The notes below the pieces were generated by a model. That model was given only the letters and a program-made list of their open reading frames with translations, was not told the DNA's origin and made no database searches. From assembly GCA_044892525.1 (NCBI GenBank), contig CM097885.1:122822001-122886000 (forward strand): a DNA stretch of 64,000 nucleotides, in the 5' to 3' direction. Of this stretch, positions 20,301 through 64,000 are shown in pieces. Positions within the stretch are counted from its first letter, which is position 1; every line of letters starts with the position of its first letter. Source of the DNA: Schmidtea polychroa. Lineage: Eukaryota. The translations under genes were made by a program, and so were the position numbers.

Positions 20301-23145
20301 TGCCATCCAGTGAATTGGCAATTTATTGAAATCTACACCTTTCATTGAACGTGATCTTAAGGCATGATTTACTAGCAGTGGTTTTAACATACGTTCTCTT
20401 GAAACATTGGAACAAAACAACAATGTAACACGGTACTTTAAAACCATCGGCAGTTTTCTGCGATTTCGCAACATAAGTTCTGCTAGGTATTTTTTTCCAA
20501 AAAAGGCCGCTTTCATCTGCACTCCAAACTTGATCTGGGGTGTATCCGCCATCTTCAATAATTTGTCTAAGTTTTTGAGGAAATTCTTTAGCAGCCAATT
20601 CATCTGCAGATGCAGTTTCTCCCATAATTTTTACATTGTGGAGAGCATGCCTTTTAAGAAAACCTGTACTTGCAGAAAATTCAAATTTTTTGTATGACTG
20701 AGATGAAGTGCCTGGCTCAAGTTCTTTAATACGTTTATAGATTCTTAATGCTGTTTGCTCGATAGCAATTCCGTTTACTGATATTCTTTTTTGTGATTTA
20801 TCTTCAATCCATACTACCAAAGCTTTTTCAATTTTCTCTTTGACAACATCTCTTATGTATGATGATGATTTAGCACTTATTTTTGTTCCAGAACATACGA
20901 ATTTTCTAATCGCAGTTTCTTTTTTCTTAATCGTTCTTATGATAGCTTCGTGAATACCAAATGCTTTCCTACAGCCGTTGCACCTCGTCCACTGTTAACT
21001 TTCCTCTTCGTTTTTATTACAGATGAATTATGTGACATTATGTTAAGGCTGCCAAAATAAATTTAATCTATAATTATAATTAATAATACAAAGATTTGAA
21101 AGTTATTTAAAACTTACCTGTTATTGGGTTAATAAATCGATACGAGCAGAATTAATAAATTTATACGAGCACCTTATTTTACTTATAACTTGTTAAACAT
21201 TCACAACAACAAAACGTCTTTTCTTTTCAATTCTCAAAACCAAACTAAATTGCATACAAAGTACATTACGTTTTTACTTTATGTATATTTTGGGGAATCC
21301 CACCCAAAGAATTATATTAAGAATTATATATACACATAATCAACATAATCTAACTGAATTCTGAAGAATATAATGCGAAGTTGAAATGTATGTATATATA
21401 ATTTGTGAAAAATGAAAATAAAAAAATTATTAGAACATCAAAAAAAATTCATTGAATATTGAAAATCGTCTTAAAACAAAGAAATTCGTGTAAAAAGAAA
21501 AAAAATTCTTTTTAATTCGCCTTAAATCAAATTCGTGTAAAAACAGAATTAGTATTTTCAGTATTTTCAAAAATTAGATTGTTGTTAATATTTTAGTTTA
21601 GATGTTATTAAAATCCAATAATATCTTTAAAAATGATTTTTTATAATCGAAAATTTTCACTTAATAAATATTTAGCTGCAAAGGCTTATCTTATCATATA
21701 TTTGTTTAACATTTTATTTATGCTACTGCCAAGATAGCAATAGCAATAGTAAAACGTTTGTATTCTATACAATTTAAATACAATAGATGCGCATAATTTT
21801 CATCATTTTGTAGAAATTTTTATGCTAAAAATATTTTCAAAAAAAAATTATTTTGAAAATCAATCACGTCTAAAAATTTTGAAGGTGAGTTGTACCGTTC
21901 GTTATCACAAAAAAGGGTTGTATGTTGGGGTTCAACAAGAGAGGCACAAAAATGAGGTGAAAATCGATAAAAACACCAAATTCAAAATAAAAATTTAAAG
22001 TACACAATATTAATTAAAAATCAAAAATTTTAAAAATGAATATTTTCTGGAGGAAACTGGTATGAGCGGATGCTAAATAATGAGACGAGTTCAGCTATAA
22101 TAAAATAAAATCAATGGGGGGTCCCTAAAAGGAATAAATTACAAAAAAACAAAAATTAATTTAAAATTAAATAACTAATGGAAAACCCGAGCTAATGGGA
22201 AACCCGAGCTAATGGAGAACCCGAGCTAATGAGAAATCCAATTTTGGGAAGGAAATTAATTTAGCCGGATAAAATAAAAGGGACAAGAGCCGTCAAAGAA
22301 AATGAGCCAATTCCCTTAAATTGAATTAGACCTCCAAGAGGAAGCCCGGGGCGAAGTAAGACCAAAACTAATTGGCAAAAATAAAGTCAATTACCAAGCG
22401 GGTATAAAAGCAACTGGCAAGAAAACAAAACTGCCAGTTGGTCGAAGAAAAGAAAGTCGAAGTAACGAGAGCGAAAAAGGAAATATTAAAGTTGAGATTT
22501 GTTGGCAATTTGAAAAGTGCAGACAAAACCTGATTGTGTCAAGTGTGAGTAAACTAATAAAAAGTGTAAAAGTGTAACTGCATCAGTGTTAATAAAGATT
22601 TTGTGTTGGGTTATTTATTTATTTTGAAAAAGAACACAAAGGAGTCAGACCGTAGTACCGACTTACATTAAAAACCCAACATGTATTAGTCTCAAATAAA
22701 TATTTTGGTGTTCGGTTGTTTACCTTATTTCAAAAAAGAACACAAAAGAGTCAGACAGTGATACCGACTTGCACAAAATACCCAACATAATTAAATAGTT
22801 AAAATATTATTAAATAAAAAATATTATTAAAAAAATAAGTCATTTTAATAAATACAAAAAATAGAATATAAAAGATATTTTAAATATAAATGTAAAATTA
22901 CTATTTTTAGACTAAAAATATTTTTATTATATTGTAAAGTATTGTTGTATTCAGATTATTAATCATAATGAACGAAGAACTGAAAATGCTAAAGGTTGTC
23001 AAAGTATGTCGATGCTTGACCTATTAAGAGTTATTAGAGCTCAAAGAATGAGTAATTTCACGATAATTTTGATAATATAATATTTCTATTTATAGTTAAC
23101 AGAATAAATAGCGGAATTTCTGGATCAGGTGTTAATATTAATTAA
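967..23145 (+). CDS. DCAF6: DCAF6-like WD40 repeat protein (DDB1-CUL4-associated factor), multi-exon
   Basis: GT-AG exons read by hand: 967-1021, 1067-1128 (LEGHRGC), 2459-2690 (AIGGSDSCVRVFDKR), 2734-2963 (LLVNYMYDSIYLFD), 7153-7231 (RIHYNWENTGP, cf. DCAF6 RLRGDWSDTGP), 10089-10155, 10200-10314 (YAGHQNCRTM), 16554-16710 (IKDSKFWG..ILSGSECGHILVWE..NRIEPHP), 18746-18843 (ATCGIDYNVK), 22955-23051, 23096-23145 (stop). Exons between 1128 and 2459 and the start codon are uncertain. Confidence 0.85.
2278..2323. repeat. (TTA)n microsatellite
   Basis: Direct reading of the sequence. Confidence 0.9.
3763..4244 (-). pseudogene. Degenerate copy of the unknown LTR-borne ORF (homolog of 28327-29091)
   Basis: 39 of 63 aa identical to the 28327-29091 protein (IG.LKK.ID..EG.WF.P.Q...EHCRDSL.EESR.QRL.IK.Q.E.LHKV). 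Also has NVFP.HH and a terminal FS-stop. One in-frame stop at ~4003, and an upstream CLIC (CxxC) in another frame. Confidence 0.85.
4552..5019 (+). mobile_element. hAT (Blackjack/Tip100-like) MITE fragments
   Basis: Two ends of the form CCGG(G)ACGTCTGGC(T/A)ACCCTA (4601 and ~5019), multiple AAAACCGGGACA subterminal repeats, and a 50-bp mini-element at 4552-4601. Confidence 0.6.
6211..6580 (+). mobile_element. hAT/Charlie-like MITE
   Basis: TIRs CAGTGGTTCTCAAT...ATTGAGAACCACTG with internal GTGTTCCGCG repeats. The 8-bp TSD is degenerate (tggtatgc/cagtatgt). Confidence 0.8.
7330..8690 (+). mobile_element. hAT/Charlie (ZBED5/FAM200-like) transposase remnant
   Basis: Motifs LLFHT, WL..LAYL.E.F..IN.LN.SLQ and the hAT dimerisation motif FPSTYLCEQGFSAL..MKTK.R.RL. 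3' end ...AAAAGGTTGAGAACCGCTG at 8690. Frameshifts and stops present. Confidence 0.85.
8780..9480 (+). mobile_element. Decayed DNA transposase, probably Chapaev3/CMC-like
   Basis: Remnants of W.I.ADLKVV, C.WDSR...HY, KQFVKALD...F.YL..KFP..S.AKI.E.IFV and YQQLG.NMSL. The superfamily label is from recall. Confidence 0.55.
10713..12606 (-). mobile_element. Full-length decayed Tc1/mariner DD39D (plant-mariner/Stowaway-type) transposon
   Basis: TA-flanked TIRs CTCCCTCTGTCCCAAAATACTGG / CCAGTATTATGGGACAGAGAGAG. Minus-strand motifs DEKWFYLT, KSKKFITKVMFLIAVARPRFD, DNARPH and QPDSPDMNILDFG, with 39 residues between the second and third Asp. Confidence 0.9.
12650..13335 (-). mobile_element. N-terminal remnant of a probable Zator-like transposase
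   Basis: Minus-strand LKIRHKTHRPTIEDESLLLKAIV resembles the recalled Zator N-terminal LK.R...GRP.IE....LLKAI motif. The catalytic region is absent. Confidence 0.35.
13822..14015. other. Assembly gap (194 N)
   Basis: Run of N. Confidence 1.
14365..14655 (+). repeat. Dispersed repeat (second copy ~45235-45440)
   Basis: Shared CCTTTATATTAACTT..CTGG..TGA.TGTG.CACGCAA and GAA.TTGAAA...ATTTGAAAC segments. Confidence 0.6.
15415..15551 (+). mobile_element. 137-bp hAT MITE
   Basis: CAGTGATGG...CCATCACTG termini with an 8-bp TSD cctataag/cctgtaag (7 of 8 match). Confidence 0.85.
17400..18390 (+). mobile_element. Degenerate solo LTR of the TGTTGGGG family
   Basis: TGTTGGGG start, AATGG(A/G)AA..C.GAG repeats at ~17865-17890, and a 3' block GTGTTGGGTT..GACACAAGGAGT..ACCGACTT like 21923-22681. 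Confidence 0.6.
19076..21552 (-). mobile_element. Tigger/pogo (TIGD1-like) transposon, decayed
   Basis: TIR CTAATTCTGTTTTTACAC at both ends, TA flanks. CENP-B-type HTH, SADESGLFWKK.PSRTY, WMANKKAWVT, LLILDN..GHP and LPRNTTSLIQPLYQG (third Asp mutated). Confidence 0.9.
21923..22681 (+). mobile_element. Solo LTR (Ty3/Gypsy-like), 759 bp
   Basis: TGTTGGG...CCCAACA with a 4-bp TSD TGTA on both sides. Internal ~16-bp tandem repeat (AATGG.AAACCCGAGCT). Nested in an older LTR of the same family whose 3' end is at ~22788. Confidence 0.9.
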
Positions 23146-24113: not shown

Positions 24114-24908
24114 TTAATTTACATCTCTTTTGTGTCTCACGTCGCAAAATCTTCTAGATTCATAAGTAGGTAACACATTTTTTATTTCGAAATATGCTTC
24201 TAATTCAAATGGACAACATCGAAGTTCAAAATCTTCAAAAAATTCTCGAATATCTTTCTTCAAATTTTCTATCGATTCACAGGAGTATTCTAATTTCTTT
24301 AAGTTTGCATTACAATCTTTTCGGAAAAAAAAATTTATTGGACGAAATATTGTATATATATATGGAAGAAATAAAACTGCTGCAATGTCATCCATATGAA
24401 CAAAGGCCTTTAAAAATAATAAAGTTCTAGAAATTGTTGTATATTTCAAAGTCCTTATGCATATTTTTAATGATGTGATAATGTTAGGTGTCCATTTTAA
24501 TAAATTATCTTTGTTTGAATTATTAATAATGCTTCTCAGTGCCGACAAAGCTAATCTTTGATAAAATTCATCCGAGTCGCTAATTCCTTCGACTAAACAA
24601 GGAAACAAATGTTTTAATGGAAGTGTATTAAGTGGTAATGCCCAACTTGCAACATCTCGATTAGGTAAAATTGTCATTCTAATTGGAATTTTTCCTTTAA
24701 TAAATAATTTTCTGAAATTTGAAGTAATATTACTTTCGCCTATCATTATCTTTGGCGGTTTTCCAACATCAAATTTACGAGAAAAGCTTATTGGTTTGAA
24801 TGCCAATTTTCGCTTTTCTGATTCACTGTCTTTTTTTAATTGATTCATAACACATTTCTGTTTATAAAGATATGGTAATAAATTAAAGGAAAATGAGGAT
24901 ACGGTCAT
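24114..24908 (-). CDS. PACRG: Divergent, intronless PACRG-family protein (axonemal inner junction)
   Basis: FRKLFIKGKIPI (cf. FRKFYERGDFPI), W...L..L...HLFPCLVEGI, ENL..DI.E..E.FE and C-terminal IKNVLPTYES (cf. IKYVVPTYES). Confidence 0.85.
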   Translation of the reverse strand: MTVSSFSFNLLPYLYKQKCVMNQLKKDSESEKRKLAFKPISFSRKFDVGKPPKIMIGESNITSNFRKLFIKGKIPIRMTILPNRDVASWALPLNTLPLKHLFPCLVEGISDSDEFYQRLALSALRSIINNSNKDNLLKWTPNIITSLKICIRTLKYTTISRTLLFLKAFVHMDDIAAVLFLPYIYTIFRPINFFFRKDCNANLKKLEYSCESIENLKKDIREFFEDFELRCCPFELEAYFEIKNVLPTYESRRFCDVRHKRDVN

Positions 24909-25779
24909 GTTGAATTAATTCAAATCTAAATCTGTAAATACAATTGTTTAATGATTAAACATTAATTAACCAAATATAATTTATATTAAAATTACAATTG
25001 CTATTTTAACCCTTTAATGCACATTGTGTACCCGCGAGATAATTCCAGCTGCATGACATACAATAAAAATAAAAATTTTGTAATATTTTTTAAATTTTTA
25101 ATTAAAATAAAGTTCAAAAATGTATATTCTTCATTAAAAAATTTTTTTTAAAAAAGTGAGTTAAAAATATGTTTGAACTTACATATTGCTTTAAAAATAT
25201 TTTATGATGGATGCTTTAAGTTCCTTATTATAATCGTTAAATTTATCGTCAACTAATTTTTACACAAAATCTACTTTTATCATTAAAAATTCTCCACGAT
25301 CTACTTTACCACGCATACATTTCAAATTTTATAGTATTAACTAGTTGAATAAAGAAGATTGAACGGTAATATAAAACCCTCTACGCGTTTATCAAGCGTC
25401 CAGCATTATACCATTTATTATTTATTCCAAAGTAAAATGTATAGATTTTGAATGAAGAAATATCATCATTAAATACATTTAAAATATTTTAATCTTAATT
25501 TATCTATTTAACTTTTTTGAAGTTTCATTTATTATTATTATTATGATCAGATCAAAAGTTTTTTTTCATAAGCAAGTGCCTGGTTTGTCAAGTATTTTTG
25601 TTATTTGAAGCACGAGGAGTAAAATTAATTAGATGTCTACGGAGTTTTACAAAAGAAATTTTTATTTATTGCATATATAATTGAAAAACACCAAAATTTG
25701 ACAGATCGCCACTCAATTCTTCCTTATTGCAAATTAGCCTTTCGCCTAAAATATTTCAGCTTGTCCGGTTCTTCTTGAT

Positions 25780-26311: not shown

Positions 26312-27405
26312 CACCTAAATCCAGAAGTTAAAATTCTCTATAATACATGTTGGTGTGTTCATCAGTCAATGACTCACCATTTATGAGAGTGTTTATTTCA
26401 TTTTTTCATTCATTTTTTCAATTCAATTTTATTTTATGGTTTTAGAAGTAAGTTTTTTAAATTTAAGTATATTTTAAGACTTGAATTTTGATTTTATATA
26501 ATTATGAGATTCAAGCACTTAAATATTACTTGTAATCAGCATTTATAATATAAATTATTGATAATTAAATTTCAGGTGTTTTTTAGGTATTTTATGACAT
26601 GTTATGAATTTGGAATTATATCAATAAAATATAATATTTAACTTTACAAATAAAGTGCTTTATTAAATTAAAATAATCACCAAACACATTTATTTTTTTA
26701 AGACATTTAGGAAAAAAGCGGCGTATATGGATAAAATAGTTTTTTAAGTTTTTGTAATCTTCATTCTCCAGCTCATTTTCAATAGCCTCTTTGACGATGT
26801 CAAAGCGGCTTGAATTTTCGAATTTTTTTCTTCAATTCCAAAGGTGTCGATGGAACTTGTTGAATATCTTCACACAAAGGCGTTTGACTAGAAATATCTG
26901 ATATGCTGTAAAATATTTAAATTATTTGTAATTAAATGAAAAAATTCTTACATTGTCAGATCTTGACCTTCGCAAAATGGAAGTGTTTCCAAAGAAATAT
27001 CTGAAAATCTAAAGAAATATTAACTTCTAAAATATTTTATAAATGGATCTTACAATGTTTTGTCGTCCTTTTCTCGAAAACTTAAAGTTGAGTTGTCCGA
27101 TTCAAAATCCAAATTTTTTTCAGCCATGAATTTTAATAATTTAAAATTATTGATAGGTTAACAGTATGTTAATTACTTTTTACTTTCGGAATGAAAAAAA
27201 GCTATATTAAATTTGCGTGTATTTTATATTATGTGTGCTGTGTTTGTATGTAAATTTATTTTTCTATCACTTTCTCAATTCCTATAATAAAACTTTTAAC
27301 ATTCGGAACATTAAATTTTTGCACACAGGTAAGTTTGTGTGTTCCTATATTATAATTTTATCGATTTTTTTAGAATATAGAAACTTTATATTCTGGATTT
27401 AGGTG
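26312..27405 (-). mobile_element. Non-autonomous Tc1/IS630-family element
   Basis: TA-flanked TIRs CACCTAAATCCAGAA / TTCTGGATTTAGGTG, related to the termini of 61498-62423. Internal coding remnants are too decayed to assign. Confidence 0.7.
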
Positions 27406-27794
27406 TATTCTAAAATTACTCGTCATTTTTCTGTGAACCTTAAGAAGAAGAATGTCAATGGGTGAATGTGTGTCAAAATGTGGATCGACCAATTAAATAT
27501 GAATTTCATAATGGTTTACTGAATTTCTTACTGAATGACATATTTATTTTCCAACGCTTCCAGTTGCTGAAAATGGTCATCTTATTGTGGAAGTTGTCCA
27601 CATCTGTATCGCATTTCATCCGACATAACCAACTCCGCAAGTCAATCAAATCTAACAAGTACCCTCCTCACACTTCTTGTATCGAATATTGGAATTACAC
27701 CGATGAATTATGCAAACTGTTCAACGTCAAAATTGTATGCAATCGTCAGAGAATATATTGCTGAAGATTCCGTAAGATTTTACTGTTAACCAGA

Positions 27795-30700
27795 TGTTGG
27801 CGTATGTGGGGGAAGAGAAAAATATGCACACATGATTATCATACATACCAAGTATCATCGTTCCGCTCAGACACTTCCCATACATACTCCAAATGATCAT
27901 ACACATATTCCCACGTATGAGCCCGTGGTGGTGTTCCACGTTGGTGCTGCTCACACGGGTTGGAAAAAGGTTAGCTGGTGAGCCCCTGCCTTAGGACTAC
28001 TCCTAACCCTTCGGGTTCCATGGCGCCTTAGAAGGTCTTACCCGTTTCTTCACACATAGTTCAGTCCGACCCTGGTCCAAAGGGACGACTTTCGGTCTTA
28101 GACCATACTTTCCCTACCGCTTGCTCATTCAACATTACCCACACAAAATCACGCACACTAATAATACAGTCAAAGAAAATCGAACAGTTGTATTTACAAT
28201 AAACATAAAAAGACAGTCCAGATTATTTGGATAATGATAAAACATTTAAGACCCTGCACAAGATAGATGTCAAATTCTTCAAGTTCCTGCATAGGGTAGG
28301 AGGATCGGGACCGACGAAGAAGTTCACTACGAGAATGCCTCTCCTTCCGCGAGCATCTCGTCAATATCGACAGGCAAATAATGATCAGCAACATATTTAA
28401 TCCCTTCTGCCGGAATTACTTTGAAAATCTCCTTGGCGGGAATTGAATGCGTGGCAGATATCTCGTTTATTTTGGATTGCGCCACTGACAAGGATGTTTC
28501 GAGGGCGGCCATTGCGTTTCTACGCTTTTGATTTTTCTCAGAGCGCGTCAGCCGCTTACGCTTTCGATGTGGCAATGCGGCTTCTGCTGGAGGCTGAGTG
28601 AGGTGCGACACGAGGATTGGAGCCAAGATAGGGTCCGATGGACCGCCAGCCATAGGCCGATAACCAGAAAGAACTGGGGCGGGAATTGGCGGCAATTGTA
28701 GGCCATGCCCATTACAACTAGTTGTTGATGAAGTTTCAACGGATTGGTGGTGTCCTGGGAACACGTTAGTCCCATCTGGTATTGGATATTCGCGAACTCG
28801 CTTCGCTATCTCGGATTCGGAATACACTTTGTGCAGTGCCTCTGACTGGGCTTTTATGGTTAGCCTCTGGCACCTACTCTCTTCCAGGAGACTGTCACGG
28901 CAGTGCTCCAAACGTAGGATTTTGCTCTTCTCCTCCTTCATTTGTGGTGGGGAGAACCACGTACCCTCATAGAGGTCAATGCGCTTCTTTAGAGCCCCGA
29001 TATATAGATGCAATTGGGCAATATCCGCGCTCTTGTCTGCGCAAGAGAAACACGGGTGAAGTTCTTTGGTCGGATTGGATTTTGAAGACATCTAGAAATC
29101 CAGAAGGTATATAGTAATCAATAAGTTTATTTACGCGAGATCTACAAATTCGAATATGAATGCAGTCACATCGCCAATCATTCCACTCAGCAATAACTAT
29201 AGCAATGGTCAACATTCAACATCATTTTTATTATTAACAGTTTTATATCCATGGCTTCCAAATTCGGGAGACGCGGATTTTATTTCAAACCTGAAATTAA
29301 CATTATTCATTTTATTTTTATATTTGCTAAATGTAGTGGATCTTAGCGACAAGGCAAAATTGTAGGCTATCCATGTCACAGGTAATGATGAGTATTCCTT
29401 AACGCATTCTACTTTATAAATAAGAGGCGTTTAGAAAACTCTAATATCCCTTAATTTTCATTATAAAATTATTTAAAATTCAATTTAAATCGGGGTATGA
29501 GGGTAGTCATGGAAATCCCTGACTCTATCTCCATGTCAACGTGTATTACTCTCCTGTGTGTGTATGCGGGAAGTTATTCTAATTAAGTAAGTAGTGATTG
29601 TAGTTCGTGCCTTGCTATAAATCGTTGTAGTAATTTCTACATCTGATTCTCCGCTATGATATTACCAATCAGGCACATATAGTCTGCGTGTGTGTATAAA
29701 TGATGTCATGACTTATATTCTGCTCTGGCACTGACAGGCTCGTAGGTGTGTATCGTTGGATTGATCAATGCTTAATATTATCGATGGAGTTTAGTCAAAA
29801 GAAAAATCTACAATATGAATTGCGATGTCGATATTCAAATTTTGGAAATTATCTCTACAATGATCGGCTAGACTCTAACTTCCTCATTATCACTCGATAG
29901 GCTATACTTACCACAACTAGTCGTCGACGAATGGAGTTATAAAGTGGTCGTTGCCTTCTAATCTATTAGCTGAGAGTTTTCAGACAACTTCCTTATCAAT
30001 CTGTCACCATCTCTTTAAAGGAGAGTCAAATCGCAAGATAAAGCTTACCAACTGGCCGTTATCGAGTTTTCGCCAGGACTAAAGTGAGTGTTTACATTAG
30101 TTATCGGGAAGTTTTCATGTTTCGTCTAGATTCGACAGTTATCAACGATAGAGGCCTGACAAGATGGATTGTAGCGTCTACTCTACTCAGATTAAAATCT
30201 AGATAGGAGATCTATCCGCTAACGTCTTAGCAATGTACATCCTAACCGAATCCAACTTCAGACAAAAATCTCGGATGGATCCCGTGGATTTCTACAGGTG
30301 AATACTGCTCACAATCATTGGGTCATTCGATTTGTCTTTTCGTCGATCATGGCGAAGTGCAACGAAGAATGAATGAAGAGAGATTTAGCTATCGCGTTGC
30401 AAATTCGTAAGTCGAAGATATGCCGGAATTTTCAGTCGATGGATTCTCTGCATCCCGTCTGGGTTCTCAACAATTCGTAGGAAATATTTTGTGAAAACGA
30501 CCGATCATCACTCGGTGGACAATCCTCTCCGTGCAAAATAGCTATCATGCCTCAGATGTCCTCACCCCTCCTGACCCACCTAAGCGCGGCAATCATCGCT
30601 GCCACCGCCCTTAGACCGCCAGGAGGGACGATTCTATCTCCTCAACCATTAATCATAAATGTTCATAAAAATTATTATAAAATTGAATGATATAATTAAA

Positions 30701-31830
30701 TAAATGGATACATTCGTTGTGAAATTATTTATTATATGGAAAATTACTTGTCTGGCGACCACGCCGTCTGAGTCTCGAATATGATGCCGTTCCATGATAA
30801 TCGCAATCGTTTAACCATTTCAATTTGTTGCAATACTGACTTTATCCAGATTCCCAATATCACTTCTAATAGCCATTCTCGTAGCTTCTTCTACAGATTT
30901 ATTTGAATTTTCCGCATCATATTAGATTCCCAGACGACATCGTCGCCAGACCATAGAGAGAGAGAGCAACATCTTTCGAAATCAAAAAATTTATTAGAAT
31001 AAAATATTTCATCTTGTCATTCATTTCATATCAAAATCATAGAAACATTCAAATCAATCACCATAACTTACTAAATAGTTCCTTCGAGAGTGTTGAAAAT
31101 TGTAAACGTTCGGATTATCAACTTGAATCGGTTTTCCTTTGGTTCAGTTAGACTCTTATAGTAGATTTCGTCGAATTGTCGTTAAAATAGTGCTTAATAT
31201 GCTGCTATCTAGTCCTGTAGAGTAGCGATTAAAAGTGGTAGTATAAAACAATAAAATTTTTACCTGTAGAGTAGCGATTAAAAGTGGTACTCTACAGATT
31301 TTCCATATTCCTTATATACTATTTTTCGTCCAATCAGGACGCGCCTTGTTTGTAATATTATTATTTATTATTATTTATGTGTTTTTATTATACTATGTTA
31401 GATTTTAATGCCTTTTCTTATTTCTATTATTATTTTATTTATTTTCCTATTTTCTATTATTTTTTCTTCTGTTTTTCTTGTGACTTTATTGTTATTTTAT
31501 AATAATAATTGTTATTATCATAATAATTAATTAGCCTATTTATTTGAGAATTTCTATTTTATTTTCTTAAATTTCTCGTTTATTTCTTACGTTTTATTAT
31601 TTTATGTTTTTCCTTTTCCTATCATGTGTCTTGGGTAATTTTACCTTATTTGTCGCCTTATGCATTCTATTGTTTTATTAGTTATCTTTATTTCTTTTAT
31701 ATTCTTATTTTCTTTTATTGTTATCTGATTTAGTTATTCCTATATTTCTCGTGATTTTATTGAAAATTTATTTTATCCTATTTATTCGTTCTCAACCAGA
31801 TTTTCAGCACTCTCGAAGTTTAGCCCAACA
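27795..31830 (-). mobile_element. 4,036-bp solo-LTR-like element carrying an ORF
   Basis: TGTTGG...CCAACA termini and a 4-bp TSD CAGA (27791-27794 and 31831-31834). A-rich 5' part on the minus strand, like the other LTRs here. No gag, pol or env motifs found. Confidence 0.75.
28327..29091 (-). CDS. Unknown 254-aa protein (CxxC, coiled coil, Pro-rich linker, basic NLS-like patch) inside the LTR-like element
   Basis: Intact ATG-to-stop ORF with raised GC. Homologous to decayed copies at 3763-4244 and 40566-40968. Confidence 0.8.
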   Translation of the reverse strand: MSSKSNPTKELHPCFSCADKSADIAQLHLYIGALKKRIDLYEGTWFSPPQMKEEKSKILRLEHCRDSLLEESRCQRLTIKAQSEALHKVYSESEIAKRVREYPIPDGTNVFPGHHQSVETSSTTSCNGHGLQLPPIPAPVLSGYRPMAGGPSDPILAPILVSHLTQPPAEAALPHRKRKRLTRSEKNQKRRNAMAALETSLSVAQSKINEISATHSIPAKEIFKVIPAEGIKYVADHYLPVDIDEMLAEGEAFS

Positions 31831-31964
31831 CAGATATGAAGGTGTTGCCAATTGCGGGTTATGATGACGAGACCATTTCTAGAAACTCTCCATGTTCCAA
31901 ATCTTTCATAAACTTAATGATTCGTGAGGCAGGAGTCTAAAAGCTTTCTTATGTTTATTACATT

Positions 31965-32203
31965 CAGTATGTTAATTACATTCTACTTTCGGAATAAAAA
32001 AAGCTATATTAAATTTGCGTGTATTTATATTATGTGTGCTGTGTTTGTATGTAAAATTATTTTTCTGTCACCTTCTCAATTCCTATAATAAAACTTTTAA
32101 CTTTCGGAACATTAAATTTTTGCACACAGGTAAGTTTGTGTATAGTATAATTTTATCGATTATTTTTTAGATTATAGAAACTTTTATATTTCGGATTTAG
32201 GTG
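31965..32203 (+). repeat. Second copy of the right end of the Tc1/IS630 element (direct repeat of 27162-27405)
   Basis: ~240 bp aligning at roughly 90% by eye and ending TTTAGGTG-TA. Confidence 0.85.
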
Positions 32204-32339
32204 TATAGTTTATACGCATTTGTTTATGTGAGCATTTGTCATCCTGCGCAATTGTCACTGTGCACATTTGCCTGACAACCAATCAGGATTATTCGATAAG
32301 GGATATTTTATTATTTTAAGCGTAGGTAGTTCTCAATAG

Positions 32340-33353
32340 TGTTGGGTTATTGAGTTGGTGATAAATTTTAAATGTTACTCTAACTCCAAGCGTGTCTTTA
32401 TGCGATTCACTAATAACACTTGACAACAGAAATCTTTATTGATAATCACAAATAAACTTTCACTTGACATTGACAATAAATTCAACACTCTGCTTGGTGA
32501 CTATACAATGCTTATTACAACACTCGGTGAGGAATAGCACTTGAGTATAACACCGGATTAAAAGATCACAAATTACTGATTGGTTTCTAAACTGGGGTTT
32601 TGAGCTGGTTGTTTTCTTTGACTTTCTTCCAAACTTTATTCAGATAATCAAATAACTTCTTTTCGTTTTATTATTCAACTAATTCCTTTCTTCAACTCTT
32701 CTCCAATAATTATTTTCCACAATTATTTCCTTTACAATTATTTTGACAATCGTTTGTCCAACAACGTTTCGTCCAACGTTGTCTAATTTTCTCAAATAAT
32801 TTTATCTCTCAAATCGTTTCTTAAATCGTCTCTCAAATCGTCTTCCAAATCGTTTTCAATTTCGCGTCACTTTGTCTCTAATTTTTCTTCTAATTTTGTT
32901 GCCATTTCATGTTCACCAGTTTTCCCTTATATAGTTCGCTTCTCTTGTGGCACTCCAGATAATCAAGTGGTTTTCCATTTTCCTTCTCCTGCTTTTCCCG
33001 ACTGTCCCATTTTTATCTCTGACAGCTGTCAAGTTGTTTTCCCTTAATTGTTTGACCACCTTCTCCCATCAATTCTATTAACACTGGCAAGCTGTCGAGA
33101 TAAGAATATTGTTGTTTTCCTTTTTCCCCGATTTCAAAATTCCTTTTCCTTTTGTACTAATTAATTAGTACTGACCTTGGTTTTTATTTTCCTGTTTGAT
33201 AACTTTTATTTTCTTTCTCTTTCTCATTTTTAATTTCTTTTCACTTCCGTTTTCTTTTCTGAGTTTCAATAGATCGTCCCGTTTGTCATGGCGATCTTCC
33301 CCCAGGTAACTTTATTTGTTTCTTTATAAATTGTTATTTAGGTATCCTCAACA
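32340..33353 (-). mobile_element. Solo LTR (Ty3/Gypsy-like), 1,014 bp
   Basis: TGTTG...TCAACA with a 4-bp TSD ATAG on both sides. Minus-strand polyA signal and A-rich U3. Confidence 0.85.
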
Positions 33354-55300: not shown

Positions 55301-58300
55301 TTCGATCATGAAACTTCTGTCATGCAACTTCTTTATTATTTTACTTGGACTCTCAAATCTATCTTCATTTTTCTTTGCCATATGTTTTTTTTTACCAAAA
55401 CAACATTCCCGATATTGAAAATTTGATTTGGTCTTAATTTGAAAAATAATTCATCCTTATTTCCTGTTATTCGGTAATCTTTCTGATTTACGCTTTTTCA
55501 TTAATAATTGTAGTTCGTATGGTTCGTCATTTGAATCTTTTCCCCAAAACAAAATTTTCCGGGACTTAATTGAGTAGATTTCTGAATTGTCGCAATCGAC
55601 ATAATGTAAACTTCAGGAAGTATCTCGACCCAGTCTTTACCCATTCTTTTTATTAATCAAATCTGGATCGCATTTCTAATAGTTCTAAATTGACGTTCAA
55701 TTTGCCCATTAGTACGGATTTCAATATACTAGATTAATCCCATTTTTCTCTGCAAATGTATTTAATAAAACTGACTCAAATGCTTTTTCTCTATCGTGAT
55801 GAATACTCTTTGGAGCACCAAATTTCAAAATTGTTGCAACTGTCTTCTTATTTTGCTCAGAAACTACGCACAAAGAAATATATCTACTAAATTGGTCTTT
55901 AATTGCCAAAATATTCTTCTTTCCACTCCTAGCTGGGTCACTTATGTCATTAATTTCTATAAATTTTGTTTCTTTCTCGATTAGTATCTCTTTATTGATA
56001 TTTACTATTTTTTCTTTTCGTGGGTTCAATAAGAGTTTAATATTAAATTGATCTAACATATTAATACCTCCTATTACACTTGGTGAAATTTCATTTGCAT
56101 TAAATAAATCAACCTTATTTTCGTGATTTAAAATTTTTATTTTTAATGAAACCGTTCTTAATATTTCCAAGGGGTCATTTGCACATTTTACCAATAAATA
56201 AGTGTTTTCAACTTTTACATTTTTGAGCGCGTCTAGCACATCTTTACTGGTAACACTTATTCTAGCTCCTGTATCCAAAAGCTGATTAAATTTCTTATTA
56301 TTAATCGAGATATTAATACTGGACCTACTCATCATTTTGTCGTATTTTATTACCCTATCATAACCATTATTTAAAGTGCTTACCTTATTATCAATACTTA
56401 TACCACAATCATCATACTAAATATTGCCAAAAAATTCGATTTCATGCAAACAATCACTTCCTCCTGTGTTAAAACGTTGGCATTTGGGTATTCGCTGTTG
56501 AACATCAGATTCTCGTCATCTCCTAGGTCTTTTGCATAACAATTTTGTTTCTAAATGATGGGAAATTGTAATGTCACTGGAATCTGATTATTCTGCGGAA
56601 TAAAATTAAGGTGAAAATGAATAAAAGTGATAAATCACGTAATATTGAAAACCAGCATGGATGATTTAATTACAAATATTATTCTAATTACAAAATCTAC
56701 AAATGTTGTTAATTCTAAAATATATTTAAACAAATAACCGATATCCTAGATCAGCGCAAAATTATTTAAGATAAATTAAAATTAGTTTTTAATTACTAGA
56801 TTTTATTACCAAATAAATATTTTAGACCGTTATAGTTGGTTAGTCTAGTTTTAAAACAGAAATCTAACTTCCTTTCATTTGAATGTATAAATAATGCATT
56901 AAAAGTTGTAAATTTATTAATAAGTTGACACTCCTAAATTTTTATTATTTTGTTTTATTAATCAATTTCCAAAGTCCTTAAACTTGTATCTTGTTTTGAT
57001 TATTTTAAAAGTTGATTTTAAGTCAGTAATGTTTATAATTCAAATATAATTAAAGAAATAATTATTTTATACAAACAATACGTTGATTACAGTTGCTATA
57101 TAATACCTTTTTATTGTTTAGGGCAGAGCCCGTGCACAGGATTCCCAATATATTATTTTTACTCACGAAACAGAGAAAACAGTAGCTCAAATACAAAAAT
57201 TTAACATGATAAATGAAGTTAGAAATAATTTCAAGTACAATTGTTTTCATCTATAGTTTGAAATACTTTTAGGAAATGAATAAAATTTTAAAATCCAGAG
57301 TTATTGAAGATGAATTAACGAAAGATGACGGTGAAAGAAATGTTATCCCATCTGAAGATGAAAAATTTGATTATGTTCCGTATGGTGAAGATGGACCTAG
57401 AATTACTCTTAATAGCGCATCTGGTGTTTTAAATAGATATATTGGAAAACTTAGATGTAATAGTATAAGTGAACCAAAAATCATATATACTTTTCGTGGA
57501 GATGAGTCGAATTTTTATCGCGCTTTTCTTCTTTTACCAATGCCTGCCCCTTATTTAGAAGAAATAGAAGGTACACCATGTTCCAATAAAAGAAGAGCCA
57601 AGCAATTCGTGAATTTAGAAGCATGCAAAATATTGCATAAATATGGTTATTTAATTTTTTATACTTATGTTATACTTAAGTTACAATTCTAGATGAACTT
57701 GACTCGAGTTTATTACCATATAATAGATCTGATAACAGTTTAGTTAGTCAAGAAAGTAATGACAATGAAATCAACCAATATGAGAAATATGTAAGATATG
57801 CTTTTTACTTTATCTTTGTTAGACGCAATTAAATTCAAGTCTTCTTCAAGCATTTATTTTTATAACAACTTCAAAATTGTGCCGTTTACTAGAGTATTTA
57901 AACACCGAGGCGTGATAATTATTAATATTAATGTAATTACCGGTCATACATTTAATTGATTTAATTTAATATAATTTAATATAATATGATATAATTTAAT
58001 ATAGAATTTAAATATAAAAATTTAACAGAAATAATTATTTCTACTAACTGATCTCACTTCTACCATAATAATTTTATATAGAGATTTATTAACACCTTAC
58101 AATCTTTTTAATGAAAAAATTATCATATTTTTATAATCCATTTAATGTTTGAAATACCATTTCTCATTATTGGTTTGCCTTGGAAATTTAATAATGTAAA
58201 ATTAATTTGATTATGTAAAATAAATTGAAACTGGAAATTTTAAAAAAGTAAAAAAGTAAAAATTTATATTTTTCAATGGGAAAAGTGATAACTGGCGGCC

Positions 58301-61300
58301 AACTTAAAGTTAAGGATGAATAAAATCATTTTGACAAAAAAACAAACAAATTAATTAATTAATTACTGTCATTTATTATTCTAGGAAAATCCCAGATTTC
58401 GTAAGTTTCTTCAACTTTTCTAATAGATTTAAAATCACTCAGAACCATTTGACATTTCACTATTGTCATTATTATATATTGCAGAATCGTGTAATTTGAT
58501 TCGAATTACTCCTGTTATACTTTATCTTGAAATCTGATTTTTTGATCTATCTAACCTTGCGGCATCTGATTCTTAGCCTCTCCGTCCTTATCCGTTGGAT
58601 TTCGGTAAGCTTCATTGTCGCACTCAGCTCGAGACGGAATTAACTCTTATAACTTCTGTGAAAACTTTCAGTCTCTATCGGATTTTATCCTGCTGATTTT
58701 TACCCATCAGACTGATCATCATACTGTTGGCAGCATTCGTTCCTAGCATACAATTTCATGGACTCAGCAAAAGAACAATGCAAAAACACTGCAAGCAAAT
58801 AATAATCATAGTACAACAATATTATTCATGACCCACTGGCCAAAGATAGAACGTTAGGATGACTTCTCTCGCTTCCTTGTCGTAGACGTCCATCTTATTA
58901 GACGGAAACCCAGTTGTCGCTGACCCATCTGGCCAAATCGCCGTGCATGACCGATGTGTCTCTTCGCTTGACGTTTCGTTTTACAGGTGGAGCAACTCAA
59001 CATCGGTACTCGCCAAGGTATCATCTCTGCTTCGATACGATGTGCTGAATACGGTGTTTATTGTGATCTTTTATTATTGTTTATGATCTGTTTATTATTG
59101 TTATTTTAAGAATATTTTAAAAACGTTATTTTCTCTTCATTTTAGAAATAATTAAATAATAAATAATAAATTGAAAGTATGTACAAGTTTTCTGTATAAC
59201 TTTATAACATTTGATGCGTTAAGAAATTTAACATGAAAAATATGATATTTACTTGAATAATGAGTTATTTATCTGTAAGTTGAAATACATTAGTGTAAAA
59301 ATAAATAAATTTGGTAGATGTTTTATTTATAGTACTGTAATTTTTCATTTATCCTGAATACTCAACGAAATGCTCCTAGAATTAGTTAAAGGATTGTAAT
59401 GGAACAATTAAATTGAGCTATTTATGGATGTAGTAGAATCTCAGTTTTTAGTCATTTTTTAAAATGAATATTTTTAGACTGCAATAAAGCTGAGTACAGA
59501 TTTCCAAAGATTATCTATTCCTCCAAATGAATTATATTTATATTCAATAAAATATACTCCTTGTGTGTTTTTAAAACTTGGAATCAGTGATATATCTATG
59601 TTTGATGTTTCTACATATCTTGGAATATTGTTACAGAAACCTATTCATAAAGTTATATTTTATATTAATTTTATATAACTCGCTATTATAGAATGAAGAT
59701 TTTATGAAATTTCCTATTTTTCTTGTCGGTGGCATGAGTTCTGTTGAAATTAAATTTGAGTACAACTTACCAATAGATTCTATAAATTATGCATTGCTTT
59801 TAAATTGTCATGAAACTTTGTTTAAAATATATTCAGAACGGATTAGAAAATTTGCTAAGAACATATTTTTTGATCCTTCCAATGCAAAAAGTTCAATTAT
59901 TGTTACTATATTAAAAGGTTTTTAACTTGAATTTCTAACTTAAATTTATATTTCTTAGATAATAAAATTTATTTTAATAAAATTAAAGAAATCCTAGAAA
60001 ATCCAATTGTAGTTAACTTGATTAAAAATGATCCAAGTTCTTGGATCGGTTCAGTGATTAGACCTAATTATATTAATAATGAATTTGGTGCATTTGTGAT
60101 ATCAAAAGTATGCTATAATATGAATGCTGGTTCAATTTTGAAAAATAAAATGACTCATGAAGAATTTTTAAATAAAAAATATAATATAATTTTAACCCCA
60201 AATGAAAAGTTATTACCACTTATCAAAGTTATCAGGTTAACTACTATTCAAAGTTGTGTTAACAAGGAAAAGAGATTTTTAAGAAATAATAGGAAACTTC
60301 AAAAAATCAATGAAAGTGAATGTTATTTCGTTCCTTCAATAGTTGAATGTATTTCACTGTCCTCAAGTTTATGGACACAGCTCTGTATATTTCCTACAAT
60401 TCATCATCGGATGAATCAAATACTCTCCATTGAAGAGTTTGCACATGATTTAGAATTTATGAATTTAATAGAAAAACCAGATTGCTTTGAAATTAACCTT
60501 GATGAATGTTACAATATAGAAAATATTGAATCATCTACATATGATGGAAATGTTTTAACATTTATCAATAACGTTTTCCCGTGTTTTAGGGCCAAAACTT
60601 GTAATGATCGAACAAATTTGGAACAATTTGAAATATTAGGAGATAGTTTCTTAAAATTTATCACTTCAAAATATCTTTTTCATTTTTCTGATGCTTCTGA
60701 TAATGAAGGCAAATTGACTCAGAAACGTTCTCAGTTAATATCTAATAAAAATTTGTTTCATTTAGCAATTAAAAGGGGGTTGGACAAATATTTTTGTTAC
60801 ACAAATTTTAATCCAAAGTATAATTACTTACCTCCTAACTTTATTGTTAAAAATTCTGATGAATCTGTTGAAGTTAGTAATAGTAGAGAGTTTGTCTTAA
60901 TTAAAAACAAAAATCTAGCTGATTGCTGTGAAGCTATTATTGGATCAATACTTACTAATTACGGAATCGATTTCTCAATTCAATATCTTCTTTGGTTAAA
61001 ATTACCATTATTACCTGATAATGAATCAAATATCAACATTGAAATCTCTCAAACATTGGCATTCCAAAATATTATAATGGACAGTGATATTCCACAGTCT
61101 ATCAAAGATTTAGAAACAATTCTTAATTATCAATTTAAAAACAGAGCCTATCTAATTCAAGCCATTACTCATCCATCATCAATTGCAAACAGGAAGTTTT
61201 CCTGTTATCAAAGGTGGTTAATTTAATTTATCCACTAATTTGTCCATAAATTATTTTGTAGGTTGGAGTTTCTTGGTGATTCAGTTATTGACTTTTTGAT

Positions 61301-64000
61301 AACTATATATATTATGCTGCAAAATCAAAAGTTGAATCCAGGTTAATTTTTATTTCATTTTATCTATAAATTTATGTTATTTATTTTTTATTTGATCATT
61401 TAAAAATTTATTTTTGGAAAAATTAAGAATTTTCAATTTTTGAAAGGATTTTCTATATTCAGTTAAGTTTGTTCGCAAAATTCAATTGTTTTTTTTACAC
61501 CTAATTCCAAAATATAAAAGTTTCTATAATCTAAAAAAATCGATGAAGTTATAGTATTACCTGTGTGTAAAATTTTAATCTTTCAAAAATTAAAGTTTAT
61601 AGAAATGAGAAAGTAGCAGAAAAAGAATTTTGCATAAAAACTGCACACAATAAAGAATACATGTAGATGCCTTTGTGTAAAGGTAACATTTCAAATATTG
61701 AACCAGGTTCTTTAAGATCTTTAGATTTTTAGAAAAAAATCGAAAATCGTAAAAAAATAATATTTTCATAGAATTACAGAATATGACAAAATTCGACTAA
61801 TGGCGAAAAACCAGAAAATTGCGAAAATTATGAAGAATTTGGAAGGTTACTTGGAATCACCACAAAATCGATTTAACAATAATTTACAGATACAAAAAAG
61901 AAAAAGAAGTGGCAGAAAACAAATGATTTCAGAAGAACAAGAAAATAATTTATCGTAGAATCCAATTTTTATGCATGTTTGGAAGAAATGAGAATTTTCC
62001 TTCAGCAAAATTGCATGGCCTCCAAAACTACTATTTTTCGATTTCTGAAAAATCAATTAATATCAGTTAAAAAGTAAGGATATGTCGCAGCACGAAATTC
62101 GGATCGTGTACTTGAAATTCGAATAGACTGTCTCGAAGAAGTGTGGCGAGACAGAAATGTCATTTACATTGACGAGTGTGGTTTCAATACATGGACCACT
62201 CAAACCTTCGGTAGGAAGGAAAAAGGAGAAAGATTACATTTCATAGTATAAAGTAACCGAGGACCAAACATGTCATTTATTTTAGCGGTTATTGTGAAAG
62301 TTCCAATTCACCACAAATTATATGTAGGACTTCAAACTTCATTTTCCATTAATGGCGAGTCACCTACAACTGGTGTACACATCAACGTGTATTATAGAAA
62401 CTTTTATATTTTGAAATTAGGTGTAACATAAGTACATTAATAAATGTAATTGTAAATAATATTAAGATTAGTTTTAATTAATTACGGTAAAGTTTAATTA
62501 AGTTAGGTTTGGAGTTATAGCTCATTGAAGCTTAATAATACTTGTCGGTTAGTTCGTCTGGATTATTTTTTACATTATTATTATTTATGGATTTTTGGGT
62601 AGTTTTAGCATATGTTCACGATAAAAGAAGTCTGCAATTTTTGCAACATCGTGTCATTGTGTATAATGCTGGGCTCTGTTCGAACAATCATGTGATGATT
62701 TTATCATTTACCGATTGCCAGGATAGTTGAAAATGTCATCAGGGAATCTGTCAACAAGACACATGGCGGCAGGATTCAAGTCTTACGAGTTGGTTGATAG
62801 TATTCATTTACTTTTTGTACAAAAAGTTAACAAGTATATATTTTTGTTTTTCTAAGATTAGAATAGCAATGGAAACGGTAATAGATATTGGAATAAGTAT
62901 TTTCTGGAGGTATTTGACAATACATTCATTATTTGTGGACCCAATACATTTGTTGAAATAGATGAAAGTATGTTCACATGCCGGAAGAATGATGTTGATT
63001 GAGTTTTATCACAGCAATAGGTATTTGGGAATTTTTCGTAAGACAGGTCGTTTTATGTTTAAGATTCCTGACAGAACTGCTACTACACAAATACATCCTA
63101 AACTTTGTCACCCTGAAAACAGGAGTCAATACACAATGAATCGAGAAATCAACAAAGACTGCCAAGGAACGCAACAAGCGTAACAGTTGAACGAACCGAC
63201 ACCCTTGATTCGTACATGTCCGAATTTATGTAGCGGAGTCGCATAAAGGTCGTCAGTTGAACGCGTTAAGCATACCATCATGCAAGATATTTTCCTGTAT
63301 CTTTGTAACTTTTGTAACCAATAAAATGATCATTCTTTACATTTCAAACTTAATGATTAAGAAAAAATGAATAAAACAATCGGGTAGATTATTTTTTATA
63401 TGTAAAAACTCATTTTCCCTTTGTAAATATGTTTAATCGGGTGAATTAACCGACAAGCACCAAATTAAAGAAAACTAAATTAAATCGAATTATATAATAG
63501 TAATTTTAAATTAAGTAATTTGACAACAAAGTATCAGTTGAAAGCAAACTATGAATAGCAATAATCATCTTGAAAAAACATTCAGTGTTGAGAACCAGGT
63601 GGACTTAAATGATATCACAGAACGCTATTTTGTGTGCATATTTTGAATATCTAAAATATTTAGGAAACGTCCAATATTGCAACTATAAAATTTATATTAC
63701 GAATAAATAGATATATTAAGAGTTTTTTAGTATTATTCTTATTATTTATCATAAATGATATCTTCAATAAATAATAAGAATTAAAATGTGACAAAAATAA
63801 AGCTTATATAAAACCGATCCAATTTAATATCACTTTTAAAAAAATTATACTTATTCTATAAATAAATAAACTTTTTATTTTCCAAGGAAAAATTACAAAT
63901 CTTCGATCAGCTCTAGTTAACAACAATACATTTGCTTATTTATCAGCCAAATTCGGATTTCATAAATATTTGAATTATTTTGATTCAAAAATGTTTCATA
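43400..64000 (+). CDS. DICER: Dicer (helicase-DUF283-PAZ-RNase IIIa-RNase IIIb), multi-exon, continues past the window end
   Basis: Exons: 43400-43420 (MKTRDYQ), 43459-43603 (LNTGSGKTFIA), 43651-43764, 43805-44002 (FDEVHH), 44050-44273 (ILGLTAS), 45714-45858, 49430-49642, 53842-54009, 54053-54223 (IATNVIEEGLDV..FDPP..YLQSK), 57122-57217 (GRARA), 57273-57645 (DUF283), 57693-57790, 59478-59651, 59692-59917, 59959-61213 (PAZ, EILGDSFLK, ADCCEAIIG, LETILNYQF), 61262-61341 (RLEFLGDSVIDF), 63887 onward (ITNLRSALVNN). Reading frames join across the GT-AG junctions I checked. Confidence 0.95.
44575..45075 (+). mobile_element. Penelope-like element, 3' fragment (RT thumb + GIY-YIG endonuclease)
   Basis: QNGYPNKFV, VYQITC, YIGET, TRLTEH and E.LFIKKHKPSIN across frameshifts. 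Confidence 0.85.
46751..48558 (-). mobile_element. hAT (ZMYM1/DUF4371-like) transposon remnant
   Basis: Minus-strand MDKRKKLSGAVYRK..QKGSLRKFL and NFLKIIEFLAKFDPVMKEHL. 5' TIR CAGCACCGGGTT at 48558. 3' TIR (..AACCGGCACTG) at 46805 lies in the opposite orientation. Confidence 0.8.
47879..48098. mobile_element. piggyBac-type MITE nested in the hAT remnant
   Basis: TTAA TSDs and CCCTT..AAC.ACT TIRs. Removing it restores the hAT frame NQKGSLRKFLS. Confidence 0.85.
48700..49010. repeat. Probable Penelope pseudo-LTR repeat, partly inverted
   Basis: Blocks AATACAATGTCAATTGAAAAGAA..AAGTTCTTATAATA and GCCTTTTGCTGCGAATAATG (rc) also occur at 1985-2160, 6845, 37810 and 45190. Confidence 0.5.
51250..51823 (-). 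mobile_element. Penelope-like element, 3' fragment (GIY-YIG)
   Basis: LVKNGY, MVLPYSEG, VYRFTCNGCNATYIGETSRHL and EALLIRTFNPKIN. Confidence 0.88.
51824..52500. repeat. Long inverted repeat (arms 51824-51979 and 52344-52500)
   Basis: Arms are reverse complements with about 3 substitutions and a 1-nt indel over ~156 bp. Confidence 0.95.
51980..52780 (+). mobile_element. MULE-like transposase remnant
   Basis: YFTNEWI...GWYKGY...PTTNNGLESINATIKKEATIRQR in shifted frames, with a C-terminal KRG.PT. Confidence 0.7.
55018..56560 (-). mobile_element. Internally deleted Ty3/Gypsy retrotransposon
   Basis: Protease LLDTGARISV fused to integrase (DQFSRY, FGAPKSIHHD, NGQIERQFRTI). RT/RNase H missing. 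Polypurine tract AAAACGAGGGGAAA is followed by the TG-starting 3' LTR (55235 to ~55018). Confidence 0.85.
61498..62423 (+). mobile_element. IS630/Tc1-family element with a decayed transposase
   Basis: ~35-bp TIRs CACCTAATTCCAAAATATAAAAGTTTCTATAAT with TA flanks. SKTTIFRFLK, RNSDRVLEIR, VIYIDECGFNTWT and RGPNMS. Confidence 0.85.
62860..63270 (+). mobile_element. Merlin/IS1016 (ISXO2-like) transposase remnant
   Basis: TVIDW, VEIDES.F..RK, VFG, PDRTA and LDSYMSEFM motifs. Confidence 0.8.

Follow-up and report, generated by a model that had tools for sequence, protein, structure and literature searches.

A long solo LTR of a Burro-like element in Schmidtea polychroa carries an apparently selected gene that may encode a regulator of the element

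A stretch of 64,000 nucleotides of the Schmidtea polychroa genome (GenBank assembly GCA_044892525.1, contig CM097885.1, positions 122,822,001 to 122,886,000; hereafter the window, to which coordinates refer) contains at 27795-31830 the solo long terminal repeat (LTR) of a giant Gypsy element of the Burro type, and within this LTR lies a 254-codon frame whose pattern of substitutions indicates that it is almost certainly a selected coding gene. The conserved motifs found around the frame make it likely that the gene is expressed from the LTR's own promoter. Its product could be a dimeric, nucleic-acid-binding regulator that shifts the output of the element from a short LTR mRNA to full-length RNA; this is the reading that we favour, tentatively, since taken as a whole it falls somewhat short of being probable. 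The features on which it is based are collected in Table 1.

Read on the minus strand, 27795-31830 starts with TGTTGG and ends with CCAACA, and CAGA is found on each side. The preliminary description of this DNA had reported these ends, the CAGA/CAGA duplication and an A-rich 5' part, all of which are present in the sequence. The left flank of the LTR is itself a repeat, and five loci matching the flanks were examined for an empty site. At one of them, L177, the flank repeat is uninterrupted and the left and right flanks are joined by one CAGA, so that the match between the two copies of CAGA is not coincidental. TG..CA ends, a short target duplication and an empty site are all present, and the assignment to the solo LTRs of Burro-like elements is practically certain. 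Copies elsewhere in the genome have the same structure: 12 of the 17 DNA-matched loci with a located start bear a 4-bp duplication of their own, 3991-4084 bp after the start (two of the 12 sit in a TTA microsatellite), and the other five comprise one 3' LTR and four loci without a resolved end. A chance 4-bp duplication is ruled out by the empty site at L177 together with the duplications of the other copies, and a short LTR inflated by a nested insertion is ruled out by the fact that only 9 of its 4036 positions align to one or none of 18 other LTRs. Hence, none of the three doubts raised in the preliminary description (boundaries not shared by other copies, a coincidental CAGA, nested insertions) holds. 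The window copy is a mosaic of subfamilies, and the switch between them is clearest ca. 36-60 nt into the 254-codon frame. Two shorter TG..CA units with 4-bp duplications, at 21923-22681 (759 bp) and 32340-33353 (1014 bp), are probably solo LTRs of other families; the LTR studied here, which had been described as four to six times longer than the other solo LTRs, is indeed much longer, the measured factor being 4-5.

The 254-codon frame runs from 29091 to 28327 on the minus strand, in sense to the element. A comparison of the window copy with 18 other full-length frames, chosen as unbroken, rendered ratios of nonsynonymous to synonymous substitution rates (dN/dS) of 0.06-0.16 over the whole frame and of 0.02-0.06 in codons 13-90 (17 pairs, one being saturated). 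Because those copies had been selected as unbroken, a second sample was drawn, consisting of 40 matches to the promoter motif described below, taken from the first 100 listed, in which obvious 26-kb pairs were skipped and the frame was ignored. Both ends could be located within 5 kb in 15 of the 40, and 11 of these are solo LTRs with 4-bp duplications; the frame is intact in nine of the 11, two of which share flanks and may represent one duplicated segment. An intact frame was found in three of the other 25 matches, whose ends are not resolved. The intact sense frame reported in the preliminary description and its proposed survival in solo LTRs are thus both borne out. Since the insertions are young (paired LTRs are 98.3-99.9% alike across the elements examined), the intact frames of solo LTRs show survival and not selection acting on solo copies. 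Some public gene models (P0003-P0019) contain the LTR frame fused to unrelated proteins that by eye are transporter-, protease-, phosphatase- or channel-like; these would be either annotation artefacts or real exon capture.

The signals for expression of the gene appear to be located within the LTR itself. Over its first 400 bp, each of the eight LTRs of lineages A to C examined has an AT skew of +0.4 to +0.5, as against +0.2 to +0.3 in lineage D (the lineages, of which A is the window's own, are described below). In lineages A, C and D, 37 of 56 LTRs contain an inverted CCAAT box with a TATA box after it, 330-580 bp from the LTR start, versus 1 of 1120 shuffles; lineage B has a TATA box near position 650 and no CCAAT box. 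A splice donor, AG/GTAA, is located at TATA+52 to +57 in 51 of the 66 lineage A and C LTRs with the promoter. YAG/ATG is present in all 18 LTRs in which the frame was located (18 of 19 aligned), in three unrelated upstream contexts; in lineage C the putative acceptor is 5-9 nt ahead of the ATG. In the full element, the remaining accessory frames likewise have an AG at most a few bases away from the start codon. A variant poly(A) hexamer is present in all 21 lineage A LTRs, 370-430 bp ahead of the LTR end (4.2 expected), in all 6 lineage C LTRs, 390-450 bp ahead of it (1.2 expected), and in 15 of 15 LTRs of the second, frame-blind sample; AAUAUA and AAUACA are among the planarian poly(A) variants listed in the available part of a published survey (PMC5068929). 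The promoter, donor, acceptor and poly(A) signal lie in this order in one LTR, and each LTR is therefore likely to be a whole transcription unit, with a putative start at LTR position ca. 543, ca. 2.2 kb upstream of the ATG.

It can also be the case that the gene is made only from full-length elements, either from the 3' LTR through an upstream donor or by spliced-leader trans-splicing, which flatworms have, and that solo copies are silent relics. The AG close to the ATG of every accessory frame would also fit trans-splicing, there is a second donor-like site downstream of the frame, and the intact solo frames may just reflect recent insertion. We consider this quite unlikely, the promoter, donor, acceptor and poly(A) signal being conserved, in the right order and all in one LTR. 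An earlier idea, location in U3 with expression from the 3' LTR, was dropped once the promoter was found upstream of the frame. HIV nef and MMTV sag, with which the gene had been compared in the preliminary description, are U3 genes, located upstream of the start site and expressed from the 3' LTR. They resemble it in being protein genes within LTR sequence, in elements with many spliced accessory mRNAs; the comparison fails in position, since the frame is located downstream of the putative start site, 2.2 kb past the promoter and exon 1, and is followed by its own poly(A) signal, so that a single LTR would suffice.

The putative first exon is present twice in the LTR. A mini-intron of 43-51 nt follows exon 1 in 51 LTRs, and it contains a repeat of exon 1 that ends in AG. 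This repeat is perfect over 24 nt in 41 of the 51 LTRs, and at least 22 of the 24 positions match in 47 of them; among 27 exon-1 variants the median identity is 24/24 within an LTR versus 13/24 between variants. The 5' edge of the repeat is at TATA+29 or +30 in 32 of 41 LTRs. Since the edges of the repeat coincide with where the start site and the donor would be, reverse transcription of spliced RNA is the simplest reading of its origin, and we think that the repeat was probably made in this way. Genomic RNA would lose the mini-intron at its 5' end when exon 1 is spliced to the acceptor 49 nt away, and the copied DNA would then pair with the second copy of exon 1 at the 3' end of the RNA, so that the intron would be restored and copy 2 rewritten from copy 1 in each cycle. 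The donor is absent in 15 of the 66 LTRs; in one of these, L016, the loss is a precise one of 46 nt (taken from a pairwise indel survey that is noisy between diverged copies and was used for this locus only). The exon 1 of another variant is found further downstream in 5 of the 66 LTRs. The leader just after exon 1 (in L002, L004, L140, L144 and L166) contains short modules ending in CAG, some of which match exon 1 of other subfamilies, like stacked former first exons.

Table 1. Coordinates in the window of the solo LTR and of the observed, putative and predicted features associated with it
Feature	Positions	Strand	Remarks
Solo LTR of Burro-like giant Gypsy element, lineage A	27795..31830	-	4036 bp, TG..CA ends
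Target-site duplication, left copy CAGA	27791..27794		empty site at locus L177
Target-site duplication, right copy CAGA	31831..31834		empty site at locus L177
Putative U3, A-rich, ca. 540 bp	31289..31830	-	boundary set from the promoter
Inverted CCAAT box, putative promoter element	31330..31337	-	682 exact copies of the lineage-A motif in the genome
Putative TATA box	31312..31318	-	conserved CCAAT+TATA motif
Putative exon 1, ca. 25 nt	31264..31288	-	from TATA+30 to AG/GTAA donor
Putative 49-nt GT..AG mini-intron	31215..31263	-	exon 1 repeated exactly in the 3' half
Long hairpin in putative 2.17-kb intron	30562..30631	-	predicted folds; LTR position 1200-1270
Putative splice acceptor, YAG directly before ATG	29092..29093	-	precedes 254-codon frame
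254-codon gene	28327..29091	-	CxxC, coiled coil with GTWFSP kink (ca. 20-101), proline-rich linker, basic helix (ca. 175-214), acidic tail
Putative poly(A) signal AATACA	28189..28194	-	followed by T/GT-rich sequence; 130 nt after stop
Second donor-like site GTAAG	28037..28041	-	ahead of structured region; lineages A, C, D; absent in B
Two conserved stem-loops near LTR 3' end	27915..28010	-	second is stem / 8-nt bulge / stem

Full elements with two such LTRs were found in the genome. A search with the LTR protein scored 149 places, many of them identical pairs ca. 26 kb apart, and four of the five pairs fetched are single elements whose LTRs, of 4.1-4.2 kb, are 98.7-99.9% alike and lie 21-27 kb apart; three of the four have clear 4-bp duplications and one lies in a microsatellite. 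The fifth pair, 39 kb apart, was rejected as a single element, its two LTRs being separate and only 88.6% alike. An element of lineage A measures 30.6 kb, and the two of lineage C that were fetched measure 29.1-30.4 kb. In one parent element the order is LTR, primer site, 159-codon RING frame, 4579-codon polyprotein, 462-codon RING-MATH frame, three smaller frames and LTR, and the polyprotein runs gag, env-like, protease, reverse transcriptase (RT), RNase H, integrase zinc domain and ankyrin. Pfam matches were obtained for gag, CCHC, fusion glycoprotein, protease, RT, RNase H, integrase zinc domain, ankyrin, RING and MATH. The score for Bcl-2 in the element proteins is weak (E 0.018, 16 bits, under the cut-off of 31.4), and no Pfam match to a BIR domain was found in the element proteins scanned, the three small lineage-A frames and most lineage-B frames lying outside the scan. 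The primer site pairs with a genomic tRNA-Pro, occurs 1054 times in exact form in the genome, and is separated from the LTR by a spacer of 6-7 nt in the lineages examined (A-D). The tRNA-Pro(TGG) genes form a tandem array with a 475-bp period on C1 near 130.9 Mb, with 2164 pattern matches genome-wide. A search within the LTR for extra boxes pairing with the tRNA rendered only scattered matches of 9-11 nt, and no polypurine tract was found before the 3' LTR of full elements of lineages A-D, where there is a conserved GC-rich motif instead.

The preliminary description had predicted a family of retroelements with very long LTRs, two copies of ca. 4 kb flanking gag-pol, and that family is the one found; it is not a new one, since by comparison of descriptions its layout is that of the Burro elements published for planarians. 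According to the available parts of their description (PMC6431247), the Burro or GYPSM1 elements are ca. 30 kb or more in length, are present in hundreds of copies, and encode a polyprotein of gag with CCHC knuckles, an in-frame env-like fusion protein between gag and pol, and ankyrin repeats, as well as TRAF/MATH and RING modules, the MATH module of Burro1 being in the polyprotein. The elements described here share the length of ca. 30 kb, the single gag/CCHC/env-like/pol/ankyrin polyprotein, the MATH/TRAF and RING modules and the hundreds of copies; lineage A differs in having TRAF/MATH as a separate downstream frame, and lineage B has MATH in the polyprotein like Burro1. Those same parts of the description name no LTR gene, promoter anatomy, repeated first exon or RNA structure (PMC6431247). 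The Ogre Gypsy elements of plants also combine long LTRs, of 1.9-6.5 kb, with extra frames of unknown function, which in Ogre, as described in the parts available, lie in the internal region (PMC6431247), whereas here the extra frame is inside the LTR.

Forty LTRs were taken from the first 100 primer sites listed, without regard to the frame, and distributed among lineages A (4), C (6), B (15) and D (15). Matches to a profile of the LTR protein were found in 4/4, 6/6, 12/15 and 0/15 of them, respectively, homologues of the 254-codon gene being thus present also in the LTRs of lineages B and C. RT/RNase H, compared without gaps across at most 230 residues, is 97% identical between A and C and 86-88% between A and B; the identity of the LTR protein is far lower, 33-38% and 20-26%, respectively. 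A protein diverging faster than RT is as expected if it is a factor tied to its own LTR type. It could also be, as proposed in the preliminary description, that the protein counters silencing of the element by piRNA or heterochromatin, with which its rapid divergence between lineages and a likely nuclear signal would agree. The N-terminal domain is, however, nearly invariant within lineages (the low dN/dS of codons 13-90), unlike what an arms race would produce, and no likeness to a known suppressor was found in the searches run; no result here specifically supports an anti-silencing role, and we regard it as improbable.

The LTRs of lineage B contain a 152-codon homologue and, upstream of it, a second frame of 121 codons, and the two may be spliced together. 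Many lineage-B copies have no ATG at the start of the 152-codon homologue. The 121-codon frame (L031:488-850, plus strand) has an acidic start, no Pfam match and a C-terminal RKRGRPRK run, which we take to be AT-hook-like. In lineage D, four of five elements have a second LTR of 1.5-1.7 kb located 13.6-15.1 kb further on; in three of these four there is a single gag-like frame of 760 codons. No pol was found in the five elements examined. The gag-only elements of lineage D, of ca. 15 kb (L075/L117, L097/L119, L108/L125), retain the promoter, the primer site and the RNA structures.

The AlphaFold2 model of the protein has a mean pLDDT of 62.8, with confident helices at residues 20-41, 49-101 and 183-214 (pLDDT ca. 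80-90) and a disordered linker and tail. Residues 8-112 were modelled as a parallel homodimer with a score of 0.61 versus 0.00 for the best control, the runs agreeing in at least 96% of contacts, with pLDDT of at least 82. In calibration on microbial proteins, 21 of 30 solved pairs and 0 of 23 single chains came up to the mark; for eukaryotes, it was reached by 17 of 29 pairs (7 of 16 in animals) and by 1 of 7 without an older solved relative. The LTR protein is accordingly predicted to dimerise through its coiled coil, and the score obtained may be owed to likeness to known coiled coils. A window of 18 residues with 8-12 Arg or Lys is present in all 17 proteins examined, in one of which the best window fell in the coiled coil. 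Distant homologues retain the GTW-x-x-P kink and a basic run with up to 12 Arg in 18 residues, and an acidic-aromatic C-terminal patch is present in lineages A and C and in several distant homologues and absent in B. A profile search of 1.84 billion proteins rendered 18 matches at E 0.001 or better, most of them longer gene models fused with unrelated proteins, and none of the ten looked up has an informative name. No named match for the LTR protein was found in Pfam, in a word-indexed search with the protein and the alignment, or in Atlas; the best match among PDB sequences has E 0.68, with coiled coils only, and Foldseek against PDB and viral structures gave nothing at E 0.001 or better. Identity as a bZIP protein was rejected, the feature score of 0.77 with 91 shared features being under the bar of the tool.

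A regulatory role is a reasonable inference from this anatomy, and we find it somewhat probable that the protein regulates the expression of its own element. Rev, Rex and Rem are retroviral export factors, according to the available text of PMC3856414, and are alike in having an Arg-rich basic helix and a capacity to multimerise, here predicted, as well as in belonging to elements that also contain conserved RNA structures. The LTR protein differs from them in having no sequence or fold match and no conserved leucine-rich export signal and in being encoded within the LTR, and binding is only predicted here. Tat and phage lambda N are likewise regulators with an Arg-rich basic helix, and the basic run resembles those of Rev and lambda N; homology to Rev or lambda N was supported by none of the searches run. 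In foamy viruses, the small accessory protein Tas combines a basic region with an acidic patch at its C terminus; its gene lies between env and the LTR and is expressed from an internal promoter. Tas is a transactivator, as stated in the parts available of two sources (PMC3856414, PMC7828637). The LTR protein is similar in its size, its basic region and its acidic C-terminal patch, and the major donor is close to the cap site in both cases; the location of the Tas gene and its internal promoter set it apart, and no homology was found.

The RNA of the LTR offers candidate targets. Both 3' stem-loops, together with the donor-like GTAAG of lineages A, C and D, fall within the final 250 bp. According to predicted folds, the hairpin at 30562..30631 is kept despite base changes across lineage A, and C and D have an analogous hairpin. 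The anchor of the second stem-loop near the 3' end is found in 57 of 59 LTR ends and in all four lineages, and most outer positions change on both sides; in its outer helix 148 of 152 cells are paired versus a mean of 102.5 and a maximum of 116 in shuffles, a score inflated by kinship, the inner stem having been chosen for best pairing. No credible match to the LTR was found in Rfam. Alternatively, the protein could serve in the particle, structurally or in packaging, by binding to the 3' stem-loops as a packaging signal. A predicted coiled-coil dimer with a basic helix would suit that function, and the stem / bulge / stem adjoins the primer site and is kept in the non-autonomous lineage D; Gag, however, already has CCHC knuckles, and an acidic tail and a putative separate spliced mRNA are more typical of regulators, which makes this alternative very unlikely.

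Another explanation is that the gene is real and expressed from the LTR and that its protein acts on the host cell (survival, ubiquitin, signalling) and not on element transcripts. RING, TRAF/MATH and ankyrin modules, and weak Bcl-2-like ones, occur in these elements; with copies dispersed in their hundreds, an effect on the host through dosage would be plausible, and an IAP-like protein of Burro1 was reported to protect planarian stem cells in a 2026 study cited in the available text of PMC13465017. Against it, the LTR protein has no recognisable host-protein domain, the presence of a basic helix and an acidic tail suggests nucleic acid and the transcription machinery as its partners, and a site directly behind the promoter suits an early regulator, so that we judge an action on the host unlikely.

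In the favoured reading, transcription would start ca. 30 nt after the TATA box. Joining of exon 1 to the acceptor 49 nt away would produce genomic RNA, and joining of exon 1 to the acceptor at the ATG would produce a short mRNA that terminates at the poly(A) signal, 130 nt past the stop codon. Splicing of the remaining accessory frames would follow the same manner, through the AG just before their ATG. The coiled-coil dimer would use its basic helix to bind a conserved hairpin or LTR DNA, and its acidic tail would promote read-through of the poly(A) site of the 5' LTR, elongation, or export of the 27-kb RNA. Regulation at the RNA level is possible, if clearly less than probable, and regulation at the DNA level would be a rather unlikely variant. 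Solo LTRs would act as a dispersed source of a trans-factor that the gene-less lineage D would borrow. That the LTR is a complete spliced gene for a switch similar to Tat or Rev, with hundreds of solo LTRs feeding full and non-autonomous elements and with a start intron kept by a self-renewing copy of exon 1, is in its entirety doubtful.

Several observations weigh against this reading. The putative start site, splicing and poly(A) site are deduced from DNA, and neither of the two exact patterns searched for the spliced junction of exon 1 with the ATG has a match in the genome. The dN/dS comparisons were made near saturation (dS >1), and the copies are akin to each other, so that the counts are not independent. 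The intron-less LTRs (15 of 66) can also be explained by recombination between the two repeats. Lineage B has no acidic tail, CCAAT box, exon repeat or second donor. RNAalifold on the raw alignment missed the 3' stem-loops, lineage C being offset there by one column, and the fold of the window copy by itself is not better than that of its shuffles (z -0.83). A leucine-rich export-signal pattern is absent in lineages C and B and is present in A only inside the basic helix, and no sequence or fold similarity to a named regulator appeared in the searches run.

Other features of the window include exons of a Dicer-like gene at 57273-61226 (plus strand), with Dicer dimerisation and RNase III domains; a PACRG-like single-frame gene at 24114-24914 (minus strand; Pfam ParcG), 2.9 kb from the solo LTR; a Tc5/Tigger-like transposase remnant at 20323-20994; and a Gypsy protease-integrase remnant at 55721-56416 (both on the minus strand). 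A short dispersed repeat flanks the LTR, outside its unit, with copies at 27160-27410 and 31950-32210, and occurs again as an inverted pair near 62 kb (61490-61538 and 62391-62431).

The Burro element type itself is known; the LTR-borne gene and the repeated first exon are apparently new with respect to the literature searched, in which no description of either in Burro LTRs was found, and the figures or text of Grohme 2018 or Lee 2026 may already show the frame. The repeated first exon would constitute a record in DNA of the start site and of splicing, and in practice an LTR exon appears spliced into unrelated gene models within public protein sets. Solo LTRs are usually seen as a non-coding end point, and here the leftover repeat keeps an apparently selected gene and its likely signals in hundreds of copies. 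The favoured reading provides a testable account of the possible regulation, in an invertebrate, of a retroelement RNA that is 27 kb long and has many spliced frames. Moreover, Burro1 being reported to affect the survival of planarian stem cells, a regulator borne by the LTR would bear on stem-cell survival.

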